DNA of 64,000 bases from positions 42,311 through 106,310 of the forward strand of contig CAXGUD010000012.1 of NCBI GenBank assembly GCA_964012805.1. The letters run 5' to 3'. The DNA comes from an uncultured Bacteriovoracaceae bacterium (GTDB lineage Bacteria; Bdellovibrionota; Bacteriovoracia; Bacteriovoracales; Bacteriovoracaceae). Made by a program: the position numbers and the translations under genes. The notes under the pieces were generated by a model that saw only the letters and a list, made by a program, of their open reading frames with translations, was not told the DNA's origin and ran no database searches. Of the stretch, positions 51,829-61,247 are shown piece by piece; within the stretch, counting starts at the first letter, position 1, and each line of letters opens with the position of its first letter.

Positions 51829-52992
51829 CTAATTAAAATAAAGCGCTATATGAGGAATTCCTGAAACTTTAACTGGGCCTAAAGATCCACCCATGGAAAA
51901 CTTAAATTGTGATTTAATTTTTTTGATTTTCCATTGACTTCTATGACTAACTTTTGAACCAAACCTTTTCATAAACTTATGAGAAAATTTAAAGGCCTTT
52001 TTAAGTCCTTTTTTAACTTTCCTCTTTTTTATTTTAAAAAAGTAACTTTTTCCAAGGCTTTTTTCAGTTCCGTTGGCCATGACAAGTATTTCACCGTCTA
52101 GGTTATTAGATTTTACAGTTTTGTTATAATCTTCTGTCCTTTTAAAAAAGACAGAAGGAACTGCATAACCGCCTAATTCAGCAAGACCTAGTTTTCCCTT
52201 AGCAGAAACTCCAAGACCAATTTCTACTCGGCTAAGAGAGAGACCTTTTTTTTCGTATTTTGGAATACTAGAAAATAATATGTCACCCATGTCTTCAAAA
52301 AAAGCCGTTAACTCATGATTTGAAGAAGCCTTCACCTTTTTGGTCAAGTCTTTTCTTTTCCACTCAAGTCGTAAACGTGTATCTCCACCGATTTTTATTA
52401 ATGGCCCAAAAACAATTTTACCCGTTGCTTTAATTCCCATTTCTAATCTTAATTTATTGGCCTTCCATCCGGAAAAATGCATTTGGGATAACGATTCACC
52501 TAGTTGGTGGAAGTTTTTCATTGCTTTCTCAAGCCCTTTAGAAAGAACCTTTCCATTTTTAACTTTCCCAGAGTTAACCATCTTTTTTACAATGAAATGA
52601 ACTTGTGAGTTGATAGATTCTTCAGTTGTCGACTCATCAAAGCTAATGACATTTTCTTTTATGGCCTTCTCTTGTTCTTTTCTTGTCCAGTCAACTTCAA
52701 GGACTTTGGTTCCACCCCAAGAATAAATCCCTAGCTTTCCAGAAAGACCTAAAGCGAGAGACGTTTGGAAGCCTGAAAATTTCCACGAAGAATTGTTTAT
52801 TGACTTTGTTTCTTTGAGGCTTAGAAATTGATGAGAGTCGACATAATTTGTTAAAAAACCGTCTATTGAAGATAGGTCATCTTCCATAATGGATTTTTCA
52901 TTACTATCTGAAAACCAATAAGAGCTAAGATGCCCCTCTTTTCCATGAAGATTTGTTGTGACTAATAGGAGTAAAATTAAATATCTGATCAT
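51829..52992 (-). CDS. Secreted protein with four amphipathic beta-hairpin repeats
   Basis: Signal peptide; four related units of about 36 aa. Confidence 0.75.
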   Translation of the reverse strand: MIRYLILLLLVTTNLHGKEGHLSSYWFSDSNEKSIMEDDLSSIDGFLTNYVDSHQFLSLKETKSINNSSWKFSGFQTSLALGLSGKLGIYSWGGTKVLEVDWTRKEQEKAIKENVISFDESTTEESINSQVHFIVKKMVNSGKVKNGKVLSKGLEKAMKNFHQLGESLSQMHFSGWKANKLRLEMGIKATGKIVFGPLIKIGGDTRLRLEWKRKDLTKKVKASSNHELTAFFEDMGDILFSSIPKYEKKGLSLSRVEIGLGVSAKGKLGLAELGGYAVPSVFFKRTEDYNKTVKSNNLDGEILVMANGTEKSLGKSYFFKIKKRKVKKGLKKAFKFSHKFMKRFGSKVSHRSQWKIKKIKSQFKFSMGGSLGPVKVSGIPHIALYFN

Positions 52993-53015
52993 TTTAGTAC
53001 CCTCTCTTTAAATAT

Positions 53016-53324
53016 TTATTTTTTTGAAAAATAGAGTTTAAAATAAGGTTCTGCCGTTGCGGTTATTAGACTTCCAATACCTAACTTCATTTTTATATAG
53101 GTTCCAACTGAAACTTTATAAAAAGAGAATTTACTTTTATCTAAAGATTCAAGTGTCGATTCGGAAAGAATAGAAATTGATTTTTTTAATTTTAAATCCC
53201 ATTCACTTTTTTTAAGACTAACTTCTTTTGGGTTTCCTTTACTATCCAAACCTATTAAAGGTAAAGATGAACTATTGGCGACTGAAATAAGAAAGAAATA
53301 GAGAAAAATTGCTTTTTTAATCAT
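53016..53324 (-). CDS. Small secreted protein, one amphipathic beta-hairpin unit
   Basis: Signal peptide; FSFYKVSVGTYIKMKLGIGSLITATAEPYFKLYFSK. Confidence 0.7.
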   Translation of the reverse strand: MIKKAIFLYFFLISVANSSSLPLIGLDSKGNPKEVSLKKSEWDLKLKKSISILSESTLESLDKSKFSFYKVSVGTYIKMKLGIGSLITATAEPYFKLYFSKK

Positions 53325-54583: not shown

Positions 54584-55342
54584 CTATAACAAATACTTTT
54601 GAACTTCCTTGAATTTTAACTTTTTAGCAAGGTGTAAAGCTGACACTCCTTTATTATCTTTAATCAATTTGTCAGCTCCAGATTCTAAAAGAAGTTTAAC
54701 AACGAAGGGACGGTTTTTTCTTACCGCATGAATAAGGGCAGTCCTTCCCTTGTTGTCTTTAATATTTACGAGGGCCTTATTCAAAATGAGTTGTCTCAAA
54801 ATCTTTTTATGACCTTTAACTGAGGCCAACGTTAGGGCACTAACACCTTGAATATTTTTAAGGTTTACTTTGGCGCTCGCCTTTAAAAGTAATTTAACAA
54901 CTTCTTTATGGCCTTTTAATGAAGCAACCATGAGGGGTGTCCATTGCCATTTATCTTTTGAGTTAACATCCGCTTTGTAATTTAAAAGAGTTGAAACAAC
55001 TTCCTTATTTCCTTTTTGGGAGGCGAGTGACAAAGAAGTTTGGCCTAAGGGAGTAGCTGATTCAGTATTGGCCCCATTTTTAAGAAGAAATAAGGCAACT
55101 TTAGGTCTATCAAATAGGGCCGCATGCATAAGAGGGCTTTTCCCAAGGTGATCAAAGCTATTTATTTTCTTCTTATTATTATTAAAAAAACTTTTAATAT
55201 CTTTAAGAGAGCCCCTTTTTATTATCTCCGAAATTGATTTTGCTTTTAGATCTTTTGTTTCCTTTGCAAAAGAAAAACTGATGAATAAATTAAAAATAAA
55301 AAGAAGGGGAAGCCCCTTCTTAATTGTTTTATAGAAAGTCAT
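54584..55342 (-). CDS. Exported ankyrin-repeat protein
   Basis: About 6 ankyrin repeats (GKSPLMHAA, GQTSLSLAS, TPLMVAS, GVSALTLAS, GRTALIHAV, GVSALHLA); signal peptide from ATG 55342, overlapping the upstream stop. Confidence 0.9.
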   Translation of the reverse strand: MTFYKTIKKGLPLLFIFNLFISFSFAKETKDLKAKSISEIIKRGSLKDIKSFFNNNKKKINSFDHLGKSPLMHAALFDRPKVALFLLKNGANTESATPLGQTSLSLASQKGNKEVVSTLLNYKADVNSKDKWQWTPLMVASLKGHKEVVKLLLKASAKVNLKNIQGVSALTLASVKGHKKILRQLILNKALVNIKDNKGRTALIHAVRKNRPFVVKLLLESGADKLIKDNKGVSALHLAKKLKFKEVQKYLL

Positions 55343-56651
55343 TGAATTCCTCCTCAAGAGAATTTTGACGGAACTGCTGGATATAATCAATGAGCTGAAT
55401 ATAAGTATCAGGCCTTTTGGCAGGACAAACGGCTAATTTGTCATAAGGAAAAGAGGCGCCTTTGCTTTTTGTTTTAAAAAGACAAGAAAAGGCCCTTCTT
55501 AGGTGTACTTCTTGATCATTTGGAATGTAGGGAAGAAGGCATGATTTTTTTATATTTCCAGAGTCTCTTGGGACGCAAAGATGCTCTTTTTTATCGAGCT
55601 TTTCTTTGAACGTCGGCTCCTTCATGTCAGTTGATTGACAGTCCCACTTAGAGTTTGCTTTGGCCACTCTTAGAAAAGGAACTCTAATATCAGTGTTTTT
55701 TGTTTTCATTTGGCAAATATCAACAACATCTTCTTCAATAGTGGGAAGAACAATGAGGGTAGGGGTACAAAAGTAGGCATCTTTGAAAACTTCGTTACAC
55801 TGAGTCATCAAAGGTTGTGGTATTTTAACAGGATCGTATTTGGTTTTTTTATCTATCCAATAAAAAAGACCCTTAATATCTGACCTTAAATCATCATCCA
55901 GACTTGTTCTGATTGTTGTATCTCTTCTTTTCTTCTTTTCCTTTTTAAGTTTCCTTCTTTCCCTCCAGGAAAGCTTTTCTTTAGGCCTTTCTTCCCCTTC
56001 ACTGGCCAATGGATTTAATTCAACTTTAGTTTCTATTTTTTCCAAATAATAATCAAAAAAAACAGATGATACCTCACATTTAGACTGTATATTGTATAGA
56101 AGATGGGTTCTACCTTCCTTTTTTGTATTGGAAAGAACACAGATCAAATAATGAGGTTTTTTCTCATTTAATTGATTGAGGGTTAATTTTCCTTTAAAAC
56201 TAGGGCTTCTTAAAATAAAGGAACCCTTTCCCCAAGCATGATTGTAAATGCACTCCCTTACATTTTCAGATTCTTTGCAATAGGGGTGGTCCGTCCAAAT
56301 ATGAGGTCTTGCCAGATTGGGGTCTGGAGGAGTTGTGCCTAGAGGAGAGCTTGGGTCTACTTCTTCTGTGCTTTCTAAAACAAAATTATTTTTACCGCCA
56401 TGGCAGTATCTATTGATAAAGTTTTGGGTATTAAGGACAGTTTTTTTTAAAATTTTATTTTTTAAGGTGTCTTCTTTTAGGTCATAAAGATAATCCTCCA
56501 GCTTAGAACATTGGTTTTCTCTAGCGTCACTTTTTGTCGACGCAATCTTAGTTATTGAGTTAAGAATTTCTTTGTAAATAAGGCCTGTATTTCCAAAGGC
56601 CTGGCAATTAAAAATAATTACGGTTAGCCCCGTAAAAAAAATCTTTTTCAT
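55329..56651 (-). CDS. Secreted Cys-rich hypothetical protein
   Basis: Signal peptide; many Cys; basic Lys/Arg stretch. Confidence 0.75.
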   Translation of the reverse strand: MKKIFFTGLTVIIFNCQAFGNTGLIYKEILNSITKIASTKSDARENQCSKLEDYLYDLKEDTLKNKILKKTVLNTQNFINRYCHGGKNNFVLESTEEVDPSSPLGTTPPDPNLARPHIWTDHPYCKESENVRECIYNHAWGKGSFILRSPSFKGKLTLNQLNEKKPHYLICVLSNTKKEGRTHLLYNIQSKCEVSSVFFDYYLEKIETKVELNPLASEGEERPKEKLSWRERRKLKKEKKKRRDTTIRTSLDDDLRSDIKGLFYWIDKKTKYDPVKIPQPLMTQCNEVFKDAYFCTPTLIVLPTIEEDVVDICQMKTKNTDIRVPFLRVAKANSKWDCQSTDMKEPTFKEKLDKKEHLCVPRDSGNIKKSCLLPYIPNDQEVHLRRAFSCLFKTKSKGASFPYDKLAVCPAKRPDTYIQLIDYIQQFRQNSLEEEFNDFL

Positions 56652-56671: not shown

Positions 56672-57379
56672 TTAATTTCTTCTACTTTTTTTAATACAAA
56701 ACTTTGGAGAAGGGTCTTGGCAATACCTTTCAACCTTCCCCCATTTAAACAAAAATTTAAGGTAAACTTCTTTTTTGTTAATTGTGTCTTCTCTAGAACC
56801 GCTTATTTCAACCTCAGTTTCAGTCACGGCACCCCCAGAACCAGAGTTAGGGAAAACGTCAGTATCCTCTATGTCAATTGGGTCGAAAAAAAAGTCACTG
56901 ACTGTGTTAAAGGCTTTCCAATGGAAACCGAAAGAAAATTTCCCATCCCATCTATCAAAATTTCCACAAGTTCTTTCAAAGTAGCAAATTTCTTTTTCAT
57001 TTGTTTCCATGAAGTGCAAAACAGACATTGAAGGAATATATTTCCCCCCACCCATACATGAAATAACGGCGCTTAACTCCCTATCATAGGTTATATTAGG
57101 ATTTTCTTTAACAGGTTCAGGGAATTTCCCGTCAGCTATACCGGTAAGAATTTTAGGATAAGTCCCACCAGGTCTGTCTTGAAAAACTATATGAACATCA
57201 ACACATGACTTTGCGACATGCAATCTAAAATCCCGCTCTGAGTAACCAGCTCCTTTTCCATGGCCTGGTTGAGGCTTTGATGAACTTTGAGTGTATCCCG
57301 AGATTGGTACTAAAATAAGCGAAATAAGTATAATTTTATAAAACCTTTTAAGGATTGAATTATTTTTCATTTTCTTCAT
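56672..57379 (-). CDS. Secreted Cys-containing hypothetical protein, paralog of the 57981 scaffold
   Basis: Signal peptide after a GAGGAGG RBS (start 57379 or 57370); shares REL..ISC.GG, C...R.CGN...W.G..S.G..W and RYC..P...FC with 57981-58913. Confidence 0.75.
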   Translation of the reverse strand: MKKMKNNSILKRFYKIILISLILVPISGYTQSSSKPQPGHGKGAGYSERDFRLHVAKSCVDVHIVFQDRPGGTYPKILTGIADGKFPEPVKENPNITYDRELSAVISCMGGGKYIPSMSVLHFMETNEKEICYFERTCGNFDRWDGKFSFGFHWKAFNTVSDFFFDPIDIEDTDVFPNSGSGGAVTETEVEISGSREDTINKKEVYLKFLFKWGKVERYCQDPSPKFCIKKSRRN

Positions 57380-57950
57380 TTTCCTCCTCAATATCTTTAC
57401 AGCGTACTTCAATTTCACTATGCCTTGTCGATACCCAAAGTTTTAAGAGAACATATCCCGCAGGAATTGGGGCCCCATTAATTGAAACTTTCAAATCAGA
57501 ATGGTCTTGAGAGCAAAAACGCCTATGACATTTGAGAGCTTTTAGGGGAATATCTTCATCTGAAGCAACTTTTGGTTCCTTTTCAACTTCATCACTTGAT
57601 GTGTCCTCATTATTATTTTCATAATGAATTTGCCCATTTTCCAATTGGAGGATGTCTTTTTTGCCATTTATTTTTTGTTGAACGATAATTTTGTCTTTAT
57701 CTTCATTTTCTCTTGCTTCCATTTCACAAACTTCTACAATTTTGAGTGAAGCATTCGTAAACCAACCGGGCATTTTTCTATGGGTAATTTGAATGGGAAA
57801 TTTATCATCCTGATTAGCACAAACCATGGTGGGAGCAGGAGCTCCTGAAAAGCGAACAGCACAGTTTATATGGTCTTTTGAGTAAAGAGGGGAGGTTAAA
57901 AAACCTCCCAAAGTGACAAAAAAGACCATTTTTTTGATTGAACTTATCAT
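57360..57950 (-). CDS. Secreted hypothetical protein (6 Cys)
   Basis: Signal peptide; stop overlaps the next gene's start. Confidence 0.7.
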   Translation of the reverse strand: MISSIKKMVFFVTLGGFLTSPLYSKDHINCAVRFSGAPAPTMVCANQDDKFPIQITHRKMPGWFTNASLKIVEVCEMEARENEDKDKIIVQQKINGKKDILQLENGQIHYENNNEDTSSDEVEKEPKVASDEDIPLKALKCHRRFCSQDHSDLKVSINGAPIPAGYVLLKLWVSTRHSEIEVRCKDIEEENEENEK

Positions 57951-57980: not shown

Positions 57981-58913
57981 TTAGTAGCAGAATTCGTTTT
58001 CAGGTTCTGTACAATACCTTCTTATATTTTCGTAAGTTGTGTCCCAGTTGGCATAAAGTCTAATTTGGTTATAGGCCGTATTTGAGAGTCCTGTATTTAC
58101 TGTATTAGCTGCATCAACTCCGAAAGATCCTGGTGCTCCTGCTCCTCCGGCACCTCCATTTCCAGCACTGACATTAACACCAGCTTCATTACAATCCATA
58201 AGTGCTGTGTTATTTGTATTCCCTGTAAAATCTCCGAGGCCGTCTCCACCAGGCCCAGCTTGACAGATAAATTTAATATCAGGACTAAAGATATCCGTTT
58301 TTGAGGTTGAGATATAACCTTGAGACTCTAAATGATCGGTGTATTCTTTCCATTCTGAATTAGATAAGTAGTTTTTAGGATAGCAGTTGATGTCACCAGA
58401 AGAGACAGAGCCGCCTTTCCCAAATGTTGCAACTGAGGCATGGCTGCTATTCACACAAACTTTGTTGCTGCTATTATTAATTGTGGAAGTAACAGAACCA
58501 CCATTTATGTCTCCACCATCTCCGCCATCCCCACCTTCTGTGGCATTAGCGAGTTTAATATAATTATTTTTCAATTTCGTATTGTTTAAAAAGTCTGTAA
58601 TGGAATGGCCCATAGACCATACAGCACCAATGCTAAGGCCGCCTCTCCAGATTTTTGCATTTCCACATACCCTTGTGCTTTGGCAAAGTTTTCTTTCACC
58701 ATGAACGGTTTTCCATTCAAACATGTGGACAGTTGTCGCTTCAGGGTGATGAAAGCTTCCACCGTGGCAATTTAGAAATGATGTGATTTCTCTTGCATTA
58801 TCTCCGCCTTTTGGGTCTTTCATTTTTAAAATGGTATCCTTGCAGACGGCCATTAAGTTTGAAGAAAGTAAAAGAGCACTGCCAATAGGTGCTAATTTTT
58901 TAAAAAAGTTCAT
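57981..58913 (-). CDS. Secreted Cys/Gly-rich hypothetical protein (56672-type scaffold with inserted 59031-type module)
   Basis: Signal peptide ending LMA; GGDGGDGGD and GNGGAGGAG stretches; 4-Cys module. Confidence 0.8.
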   Translation of the reverse strand: MNFFKKLAPIGSALLLSSNLMAVCKDTILKMKDPKGGDNAREITSFLNCHGGSFHHPEATTVHMFEWKTVHGERKLCQSTRVCGNAKIWRGGLSIGAVWSMGHSITDFLNNTKLKNNYIKLANATEGGDGGDGGDINGGSVTSTINNSSNKVCVNSSHASVATFGKGGSVSSGDINCYPKNYLSNSEWKEYTDHLESQGYISTSKTDIFSPDIKFICQAGPGGDGLGDFTGNTNNTALMDCNEAGVNVSAGNGGAGGAGAPGSFGVDAANTVNTGLSNTAYNQIRLYANWDTTYENIRRYCTEPENEFCY

Positions 58914-59030: not shown

Positions 59031-59810
59031 TTAATTTTCGTCTTCTCCGTCATCCATTACATCAATATCACAAGTTTGAATTGCTGATGCACTAACATTT
59101 CCAGAGCCTGCACCAAAACCAGCTCCACCAGATCCGTTCAAGCAAAGGAAACGAACACTTGGGCTTGAAATATTTGTTCCTTGAAGATCAATATCATCAT
59201 CAGATGACATATAACCTTGAGCAATAAGGTTTAGGTCAGCATTTGAAAGGTGTGACTTTTGAAAACATTCTGTTCCGATGGAAGAGCCATTCCCACCAAC
59301 TCCATAAAGGTGTTTTACAGAAACGTGAGAATCATTAAGGCAATTATTTCTTGGCTCGTAATCATCTCTAAACACAGCACCATAATTAACTTCTTTACCG
59401 GTGTCGTGCTGATTACAAGTTTGTAAACTTAAAGCATTAATATTGGCCGAAGCAGAACCAAAACCAGCTCCACCAACACCGTTAGAGCAAACATATTCTG
59501 TGCTTGCATCTAAAATGTCATTTAAGCTATTTTCAATATCATCATCGTGAGCAATCAAACCAAACTGTGTTAGAAGACTTCCAGAAAAAGACCTAAGTGA
59601 GGAAACGTGAACACATCTTTGTCCTAAAGCGTGACCATCTCCACCAATACCGCCTATGCTTTTAACATTAGCCTCAGTATCGTTAACACAATTATTGTAT
59701 GGCTCGTAATCATCCATTCCTCCACGGTGGCCACCGTATCCTCTTCCTAATGCAGAAGTAGCAACCGTTAAAGCAAGAACAGCCATTGAAGTTTTTTTTA
59801 AGTAATTCAT
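59031..59810 (-). CDS. Secreted protein with two tandem Cys/Gly-rich repeats of roughly 100 aa
   Basis: Signal peptide MNYLKKTSMAVLALTVATSALG (GGAG RBS); repeats begin DDYEPYNNC and DDYEPRNNC and end GGAGFG...QTC. Confidence 0.85.
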   Translation of the reverse strand: MNYLKKTSMAVLALTVATSALGRGYGGHRGGMDDYEPYNNCVNDTEANVKSIGGIGGDGHALGQRCVHVSSLRSFSGSLLTQFGLIAHDDDIENSLNDILDASTEYVCSNGVGGAGFGSASANINALSLQTCNQHDTGKEVNYGAVFRDDYEPRNNCLNDSHVSVKHLYGVGGNGSSIGTECFQKSHLSNADLNLIAQGYMSSDDDIDLQGTNISSPSVRFLCLNGSGGAGFGAGSGNVSASAIQTCDIDVMDDGEDEN

Positions 59811-60092
59811 AATTTTTTTCTCCGTTAAAAAACTGTTAATATTAAAATTAAAAACCAAATCATCCATGAAACCTTTTTACCCGGGTAAATAAAAAATATT
59901 CATTCAAAAAAACAAGCGAGAAGATGTTGGAAAAAAAATTATAAGTCAATAAAAAATTATTTTTTTATTTTTTTTTTTGTAACAAATGTTCATAAAATTA
60001 AAAGAACATTCTAAGGACAAAAAATTTATTTTTTATTTTTATAAAAATAAAATTTAGGAAAAATATATAAAAATTGAAAAAAAAATGTTGGG

Positions 60093-60270
60093 AAACTAAA
60101 AACTAAAAACTAAAAACTAAAAACTAAAAACTAAAAACTAAAAAATAAAAAATAAAAAATAAAAAATAAAAACTAAAAATTAAAAAATTAAAAAATTAAA
60201 AAATTAAAAAATTAAAAAATTAAAAAATTAAAAATTAAAAATTAAAAAATAAAAAATTAAAAGCTAAAAA
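60093..60270. repeat. Degenerate 7-8 bp tandem repeat (CTAAAAA / ATAAAAA / TTAAAAAA blocks)
   Basis: Directly visible A-tract microsatellite of more than 20 units in the divergent intergenic region. Confidence 0.9.
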
Positions 60271-60482: not shown

Positions 60483-61247
60483 ATGATTCTAAAAGGAATT
60501 TTATTTGTGAAAAATCGCTCTTTTATAATGCTATCTTTTCTTATTTGTTTAATATCTTGCGGTAAAGGACCTAACCGACCAACTTCTTCAATAAGTGCTC
60601 ATGATGCCAACAGGTTTGTCGAGCAACTTAATCATGACGCTTATGCTTTTGAATACTTCCATTTGGTAAAGCCTCAAACAAATGAATATGGTGGTTGGAT
60701 AGTCGTTGACTATTATAAAGAAGGTAATTTTTCAAAATCTTATGCGGTTAATGTTGATTGGTTTGAAAAAAGCAATTATCCGACGAGCTTAGGCTATTAT
60801 GAATGGTGGAAAGATTCATCTATAGCAGTTAAATATAATCAAAGGGATGGTTTATATTATGGAGGAGGGTACAAATTTGAAGAAAAAGCGACCTCGATAA
60901 AAGATTTAGAAAAAATTGCCAATAAAATAGAGATAATAAACCGATATAAAATCTCCAACCACCTTGCAAATAGGTATGGATTAAGCGAAGAAAGATCCCT
61001 TAAAATTGCCAAATTGGTCCAAAATTGGAAAAAAGTTTCCAAAAAAAGACAAATGAGTGAAGCAGACAGCAAAAGGTTTTTTGAAAAAGTTGTTGGAGTC
61101 TCTTTTGTATCAACTATAGAAGCCTTAAACTTAAAGTCTCAGGGTGATCAAACATCTTTTGACGCTCTTATTGAAAAGGCAAGTGAATACAATGGGGTAG
61201 ACCCAGAGAGTTTTAAAGAAATTTTGGATAAATTTATGGTCTATTAA
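60483..61247 (+). CDS. Hypothetical lipoprotein
   Basis: Lipobox-like LISC; helical C-terminus YGLSEERSLKIAKL. Confidence 0.7.
   Translation: MILKGILFVKNRSFIMLSFLICLISCGKGPNRPTSSISAHDANRFVEQLNHDAYAFEYFHLVKPQTNEYGGWIVVDYYKEGNFSKSYAVNVDWFEKSNYPTSLGYYEWWKDSSIAVKYNQRDGLYYGGGYKFEEKATSIKDLEKIANKIEIINRYKISNHLANRYGLSEERSLKIAKLVQNWKKVSKKRQMSEADSKRFFEKVVGVSFVSTIEALNLKSQGDQTSFDALIEKASEYNGVDPESFKEILDKFMVY

Follow-up and report, generated by a model that had tools for sequence, protein, structure and literature searches.

Four described kinds of system come closest to the locus reported here. Curli comprise a major subunit, CsgA, a nucleator, CsgB, and a CsgG-CsgF pore (PMC11005368). The Ena endospore appendages, found on Gram-positive spores, are built from jelly-roll subunits with N-terminal connectors joining one subunit to another (bioRxiv 10.1101/2020.08.21.260141). 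Gly-rich polyproline-II bundles occur in the Obg N-domain, the snow flea antifreeze protein and a phage adhesin tip, and the known examples contain six or more helices per chain (PMC8409303). Lastly, there are oligomeric beta-barrels to which each subunit contributes a few strands, such as CsgG, MspA and alpha-hemolysin. PopA of Bdellovibrio is a porin-like pentamer (PMC12228718).

Within the 64,000-nucleotide stretch of DNA analysed here (the window), which belongs to an uncultured Bacteriovoracaceae bacterium, five co-oriented genes follow one another with short intergenic gaps, orf1 being the first. All five encode Cys-rich proteins whose starts, as read from the sequence, resemble signal peptides.

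59031..59810, minus strand: orf1 (P0001, 259 aa), two four-Cys modules; likely major subunit
57981..58913, minus strand: orf2 (P0002, 310 aa, 10 Cys), likely anchor and seed
57360..57950, minus strand: orf3 (196 aa, 6 Cys), signal-peptide-like start, no family
56672..57370, minus strand: orf4 (about 232 aa, 6 Cys), a module-less orf2 paralog with the same amphipathic strand pair
55329..56651, minus strand: orf5 (440 aa, 15 Cys), no family

For all five proteins, searches of Pfam, NCBIfam and PHROG, and of PDB sequences, phages, plasmids and viral contigs, gave no significant match. The ESM Atlas provided no usable match, a Pfam scan of 17 module rows found no significant family, and word searches of an open-access library found no description of the family. 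The curlin repeat (PF07012) was detected in the E. coli control and in none of orf1-orf5 or the rest of the genome, and no csg genes were found at the locus when the csgEFG secretion genes were sought. A single CsgG-family match (E 3e-5) lies on another contig, where the ORFs listed as adjoining it have no curli-subunit-like reading. By these searches neither the four-Cys module nor the orf2/orf4 host domain belongs to a classified family, and the locus appears as a rare system of five genes with a new module at its core. Its unusual architecture is well supported. Provisionally, the absence of sequence relatives together with this architecture points to a wholly new kind of system, a reading in which the fold searches used weak models and function is inferred.

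The start of orf1 was set at 59810 to match that of its relatives, a longer in-frame ATG being present at 59867. Its N-terminus is basic-hydrophobic and reads as a Sec signal peptide, followed by a short Gly/aromatic leader. An earlier note on this DNA had described two four-Cys repeats in orf1 with acidic DDYEP and DDDI motifs and Gly-rich arms, and all of these are present. The description holds for orf1, although it overlooked both the five-gene operon and a third module, which is found in orf2.

59415..59690, minus strand: orf1 module 1 (C41-C132), Cys spacing 25/42/24
59070..59342, minus strand: orf1 module 2 (C157-C247), Cys spacing 25/41/24
58191..58457, minus strand: orf2 module (C153-C241), Cys spacing 24/40/24

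The two orf1 modules (Cys 41, 66, 108, 132 and 157, 182, 223, 247) are separated by a linker of 25, contain every Cys of the protein and are 44% identical over 101 aa (E 3e-32); G, S, N and A make up 41% of orf1. The orf2 module is 37% identical to orf1 module 2 (E 9e-15; hhalign 96.7%). Such sharing of a module between orf1 and orf2 recalls the polymerising repeat common to the major and minor subunits of curli, the corresponding roles here being putative.

The near-equal C1-C2 and C3-C4 arms that had been noticed in orf1 do occur in both of its repeats, although arms within 1 residue of each other are also seen in 107 of 2149 consecutive four-Cys sets (5%) from six-frame ORFs of the genome. 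As the repeats are copies, they do not count as two independent cases of equal arms. The mirror spacing of orf1 alone is hence weak support, and a single protein is no proof of a hairpin. Across the two arms, the Gly motifs had been expected to face each other; they overlap roughly, with a stagger of about 4 residues (positions 7, 9, 10, 12 and (13) counted from C2, and 3, 5, 6, 8, 10 and (12, 14) counted from C3). Arm 1 of orf1 shares 58-77% identity with its counterparts in three close relatives and arm 2 shares 96-100%, and the arm 1 changes fall mostly at non-Gly positions. This pattern fits one exposed and one buried arm.

The earlier note had also proposed searching protein databases with a profile of the module. 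Run against 1.84 billion representatives, this search returned 8 matches. Five were retained (P0006, P0008, P0009, P0013 and P0014); P0010 and P0012 were excluded as fragments, and P0011, a 1555-aa algal repeat protein that matched via a short Cys/Gly motif, was rejected. P0008 is a two-module protein of the orf1 type (37% identical), while P0009, P0013 and P0014 are of the orf2 type; P0035-P0041, about 30% identical, came from a further search with an orf2 profile. P0008 and P0009 are probably neighbours, since for each the one Logan contig is 17,156 bases long. Close copies originate in marine metagenomes, and two cluster members carry the depositor label Pseudomonadota. Distribution is patchy: the module is present in 2 of 238 genomes of the class, orf1 in 2 of 61 relatives, and the orf2/orf4 profile matched 1 of 401 genomes sampled from the phylum. 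A match to orf5 in one further genome (G238) was rejected because it covered only the N-terminus of an unrelated protein at an unrelated locus.

With these relatives at hand the suggestion that the acidic motifs might bind cations lost its footing. DDYEP-like and DDDI motifs are confined to the closest relatives; DDDI is already gone in P0005, and both motifs are missing from all nine distant relatives checked, so cation binding is not a trait of the family.

The relatives are more informative on the path of the chain. Fifteen modules in 13 proteins yield 10 distinct C1-C2/C3-C4 arm sets (21/27, 23/24, 24/24 twice, 25/24 twice, 27/27, 38/39, 40/39 and 54/51), in which the two lengths co-vary with a Pearson r of 0.98, a mean difference of 1.4 and a permutation p of 0.0007. 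The covariation that had been named as a check on the hairpin is thus found across the 10 sets with one exception, P0013 (21/27), which departs in the wrong direction; the Spearman coefficient is 0.71 (p 0.02) and rests on about three or four independent changes among kin. In the P0035-P0041 clade the C2-C3 loop stays constant at 53 while the arms grow from 38/39 to 54/51, and in P0039 two Cys have been gained, one at C2+15 and the other at C3-17, which would make a nested pair. Short runs of the GGx type occur in the orf2 arms and modules of most relatives; P0014 lacks them, and the Gly motif of the module is lost in both P0014 and P0039. Three independent lines, namely the co-varying arms, the nested additional Cys pair of P0039 and the insertion of the module at a host-domain turn (see below), favour an out-and-back fold, and the module likely brings C1 near C4. 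Nested C1-C4 and C2-C3 pairing would be the simplest reading of the Cys pattern, and is the one we infer.

Structure prediction gave a mixed picture. The AlphaFold2 model of orf1 (4 rows) had a pLDDT of 30 and was useless, and that of orf2 (28 rows) had a mean pLDDT of 51.6, with about 60-86 in the module and below 50 in the long arms. Strands were predicted in the orf2 module at residues 152-154, 161-166, 175-179, 200-202, 215-219 and 238-240, and helices at 185-197 (13 residues) and 226-230. The strands lie at or beside all four module Cys with matched lengths of 3/3 and 5/5, as a hairpin stapled there would have it; strand 161-166, however, has no strand partner in a strict long-hairpin register and suits a compact fold. 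The C2-C3 head is predicted to be partly helical and so not a plain beta-hairpin amyloid. Of the long extended hairpin originally put forward, the out-and-back course is borne out, while the short strands, the two helices and the faster variation of arm 1 than of arm 2 leave the extended beta form just partly supported. Fold searches with these weak models gave no clear assignment, for or against a jelly-roll as in Ena or any other fold: Foldseek found no match at E<=0.001 in the PDB or BFVD. The best Z values from VIA (4.8, 4.6 and 3.8) concerned mostly the N-terminal meander, in models of mean pLDDT 30 and 52, and a three-copy complex prediction for module 2 scored 0.00, which is neutral and gives no verdict.

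The host protein of the third module has an N-terminal beta meander and long mirror-image arms, with its single module at the tip. orf2 and orf4 can be aligned on either side of the module, in place of which orf4 has a short Gly turn. As the arms and module of orf2 replace this short turn, the module ends must be close together. In 10 rows of the orf2/orf4 family the two highest-ranking one-sided hydrophobic windows, scored on a hydrophobicity scale, were the following pair.

58611..58637, minus strand: orf2 outgoing amphipathic strand, residues 93-101, one-sided hydrophobic window
58032..58058, minus strand: orf2 returning amphipathic strand, residues 286-294, in register with the outgoing strand

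In both orf2 and orf4 this pair is strictly amphipathic, of membrane-spanning length and in register, and both proteins carry Ser/Thr/Asn-rich strands. The features of orf2 fall into mirror pairs along the whole chain: C77/C309, C83/C301 and strands 93-101/286-294 on the outside, and Gly runs 127-134/251-259, C153/C241 and C177/C217 on the inside. The register thereby reaches about 60 residues past the module, with outer arms that are unequal in P0002 and P0009 (70/60). Gly profiles of the orf2 arms correlate in the antiparallel sense in 6 of 7 proteins (r 0.47-0.69), compared with -0.18 to 0.01 in the parallel sense, although the mirror beats residue shuffles at p<0.05 in just 2 of the 7; P0014, in which the Gly motifs are absent, failed the test (r -0.03). 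In full-length relatives of orf2 the last two residues are Cys and then Phe or Tyr (57981-57990 in the window), an ending that orf4 lacks and that resembles an outer-membrane assembly signal.

Several elements that might govern expression of the operon were found around orf1 and after orf5.

59921..59949, minus strand: sigma70-like promoter candidate (TTGACT, 17 nt, CATCTT), kept in the related locus L006
59876..59889, no strand assigned: perfect palindrome of 14 bp within the orf1 leader, unchanged in L006
58982..59009, minus strand: 11-bp stem-loop just past the orf1 stop, with no U-run directly after the stem
55301..55321, minus strand: predicted intrinsic-terminator-like site at the operon end, after orf5

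The promoter candidate is absent from the list produced by a consensus scan. The palindrome has a single exact copy in the genome, plus another at 1 mismatch, and is possibly an operator. The stem-loop (z -2.1 and -2.35) is kept in L006 though its flanks diverge; its likely role is to stabilise orf1 mRNA or reduce read-through. Upstream of the promoter candidate (60093-60270) lies an array of 24 copies of a 7-bp A-tract unit; L006 has an array at the equivalent place (its positions 1-110) with a different, 14-bp unit, and the copy number in another locus, L004, is apparently unlike that of the window. The array is possibly a bent-DNA or slippage control.

Gene order is kept in L006 from orf1 to orf4 plus the start of orf5 (63-94% identity), and in genome G002 from orf2 to orf4 plus the start of orf5. 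Identity to the L006 orthologs is 75% for orf1, 94% for orf2, 63% for orf3 and 72% for orf4. After correction for amino-acid composition, orf1 lies at the 97.7th percentile of 3125 genes for codon bias (z 2.8), compared with the 20th to 81st percentile for orf2-orf5, in a genome where the bias is weak overall. Four RNA runs contributed just spurious pieces of 19-30 nt.

orf3 (57360-57950) has six Cys (30, 44, 75, 141, 146 and 184), invariant among relatives within the genus, that flank a variable acidic insert; it may also be a nested hairpin, and it is not detectable as an orf2 paralog. Elsewhere in the window, 51829-53324 holds two adjoining exported-looking genes (387 and 102 aa), the 387-aa one with a Pfam Pepco match just over the cut-off (E 7.5e-7) and an apparent repeat of a similar segment. 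A lipoprotein-like gene at 60483-61247, divergent from the operon, has no family in Pfam or NCBIfam and by eye resembles a strongly codon-biased lipoprotein-like gene elsewhere in the genome (G000 C1:22160-22912). The same genome encodes two paralogous exported-looking proteins with a common Gly/Cys start motif (C3:56653-57255 and C10:102622-103239), which rank third and fourth in it for high-expression codon bias.

Collectively, we propose that orf1-orf5 encode a surface fibre with a built-in anchor and seed, a reading to which we give about an even chance. In this model all five proteins would exit via Sec and be oxidised in the periplasm, and orf1 would be the major subunit of the exported fibre. 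Its codon bias, the conserved stem-loop and the variable arm 1 are the reasons for regarding it as an abundant surface subunit, and the operon context indirectly favours its polymerisation. Each module would fold out and back, stapled by C1-C4 and C2-C3 bonds beneath a small alpha/beta head, with the conserved arm 2 as the subunit interface and the variable arm 1 facing outward. orf2 and orf4 would be long nested hairpins, each supplying a pair of amphipathic strands for a barrel or stalk that oligomerises in the outer membrane, and the orf2 module at the far tip would seed the addition of orf1 modules. The GxGGxG and GGxGGxGG stretches may form polyproline-II segments in need of neighbouring subunits to complete a bundle, and orf3 and orf5 are likely accessory, as chaperone, cap or adhesin. 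Among the points against this reading, orf3 (63%) and orf4 (72%) are as divergent as orf1, or more, and the amphipathic strands may simply form a hydrophobic core of the ordinary kind. A bolder form of the model sees a new class of Gram-negative appendage and takes orf2 as one nested hairpin serving as membrane-barrel stave, stalk and seed, with a length of up to about 30 nm if the segment C83-C177 were fully extended at the usual rise per residue. On it orf1, as a disulfide-stapled hairpin subunit, would build up a fibre or hollow tube of the beta/polyglycine-II type, and evolution would have tuned its reach through insertions matched between the two arms; we consider this extension doubtful.

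The fibre model has to be set against its main rival, a reading, in our view less likely, that makes the module a compact disulfide-bonded two-finger domain with its Cys at the base, paired in nested, crossed or sequential fashion. orf1 would then be no polymer and would act as a soluble or surface-bound binding protein, for example an adhesin, decoy or prey-recognition factor on an orf2/orf4 complex. The mixed strands and helices of the module model (pLDDT about 60-86) suit such a domain, side-by-side fingers would also lengthen jointly while their ends stay adjacent, and a hypervariable arm 1 is what a binding surface might show; the mirror register that continues for about 60 residues beyond the module, the nested extra Cys pair of P0039 and the signs of high expression for orf1 alone argue the other way. 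These points do not exclude compactness, and a compact module might polymerise too. The amphipathic, Ser/Thr/Asn-rich strand pairs of orf2 and orf4 would equally serve a secreted multi-component beta-pore complex directed at prey or competitor bacteria, with orf2 and orf4 as staves and orf1 as receptor-binding or extension parts. A host within the Bacteriovoracales, an order with predatory members, and the patchy occurrence in 2 of 238 genomes of the class would be in keeping with a weapon of this kind. We nevertheless hold it to be distinctly improbable: searches of Pfam, NCBIfam and PDB sequences brought up no toxin family, and the strands sit mid-hairpin, leaving beyond them a disulfide-bonded module of 90 residues that would need to pass through the target membrane, whereas known pore-forming hairpins have a short tip.

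A strict form of the original hairpin idea would make orf1 a long hairpin, all-beta, able to assemble into cross-beta amyloid on its own and to bind cations through its acidic motifs. The 41% of G, S, N and A in orf1 and the supported out-and-back geometry agree with it; the absence of the acidic motifs from 9 of 9 distant relatives checked, the helices predicted within the module, the lack of a curlin repeat match in protein or genome and the very unequal rates at which the arms evolve do not, and we judge it very improbable. Finally, the module profile weakly matches 15 flavivirus envelope chains (E 0.19-0.74, about residues 77-119) with an equal Cys-Cys distance and a Gly-rich middle, which raised the idea of a distant kinship between the module tip and the class II viral fusion loop, with the operon serving as a bacterial membrane-fusion device. 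These matches are non-significant and come from chains that are mutually kin, an unrelated segment, from alphavirus E2, reaches a better value (E 0.075), the C3-C4 spacing ranges from 24 to 51 in the family, unlike a fixed-length loop, the Gly motif is absent in P0014 and P0039, and the Pfam scans of the 17 module rows contained no such family. On the E values (0.19 or worse), the spacing and the better unrelated viral match the idea was dropped as scarcely credible.

If the fibre model is correct, the locus would encode a pilus-like system in a marine host with no sequence link to curli, Ena or other Pfam and NCBIfam families, possibly used in attachment or prey contact. The union of anchor and seed in one chain with matched arm lengths would be an unusual assembly design, and a length-tunable disulfide-locked fibre would be of interest as a material. 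Even without a fibre, the module and the orf2/orf4 domain are families with a testable topology.

Comparison with the known systems brings out both likenesses and departures. As with Ena, the locus is a small cluster of Cys-rich genes in which disulfides would stabilise an appendage; unlike Ena, its even, mirror-spaced Cys sets suggest bonds within a chain and its host is Gram-negative, and no Pfam, NCBIfam or PDB sequence match indicates membership of the Ena family. Short GGx-type runs that resemble those of polyproline-II bundles are opposed in orf2 (127-134 and 251-259) and staggered in the module, P0014 being without them. In contrast to the described bundles there are two short runs per level per chain, too few Gly runs for one chain to suffice, so a bundle would need oligomerisation. 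A cystine-knot fold, which is defined by six knot cysteines, was set aside because the module has just four conserved Cys. CsgG, MspA and alpha-hemolysin are oligomeric beta-barrels with few strands per subunit, and orf2 and orf4 likewise have one amphipathic strand pair per subunit, which AlphaFold2 predicts with low confidence in a monomer, as staves would lead one to expect. They differ from such stave-type barrels in having no sequence match to them and, in orf2, in strands that bear an arm-plus-module extension of roughly 180 residues. No sequence match was found between Bdellovibrio PopA and the operon proteins. The logic of the system is likely closest to that of curli: an abundant exported protein with a Gly-rich leader (orf1), a second protein that shares its repeat and may seed (orf2), and a candidate outer-membrane part co-encoded in the same operon. 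Unlike the short imperfect repeats that form the beta-solenoid of curli, however, the unit of orf1 is a four-Cys module of roughly 90 aa, and the seed and candidate barrel staves would be united in a single chain, orf2.
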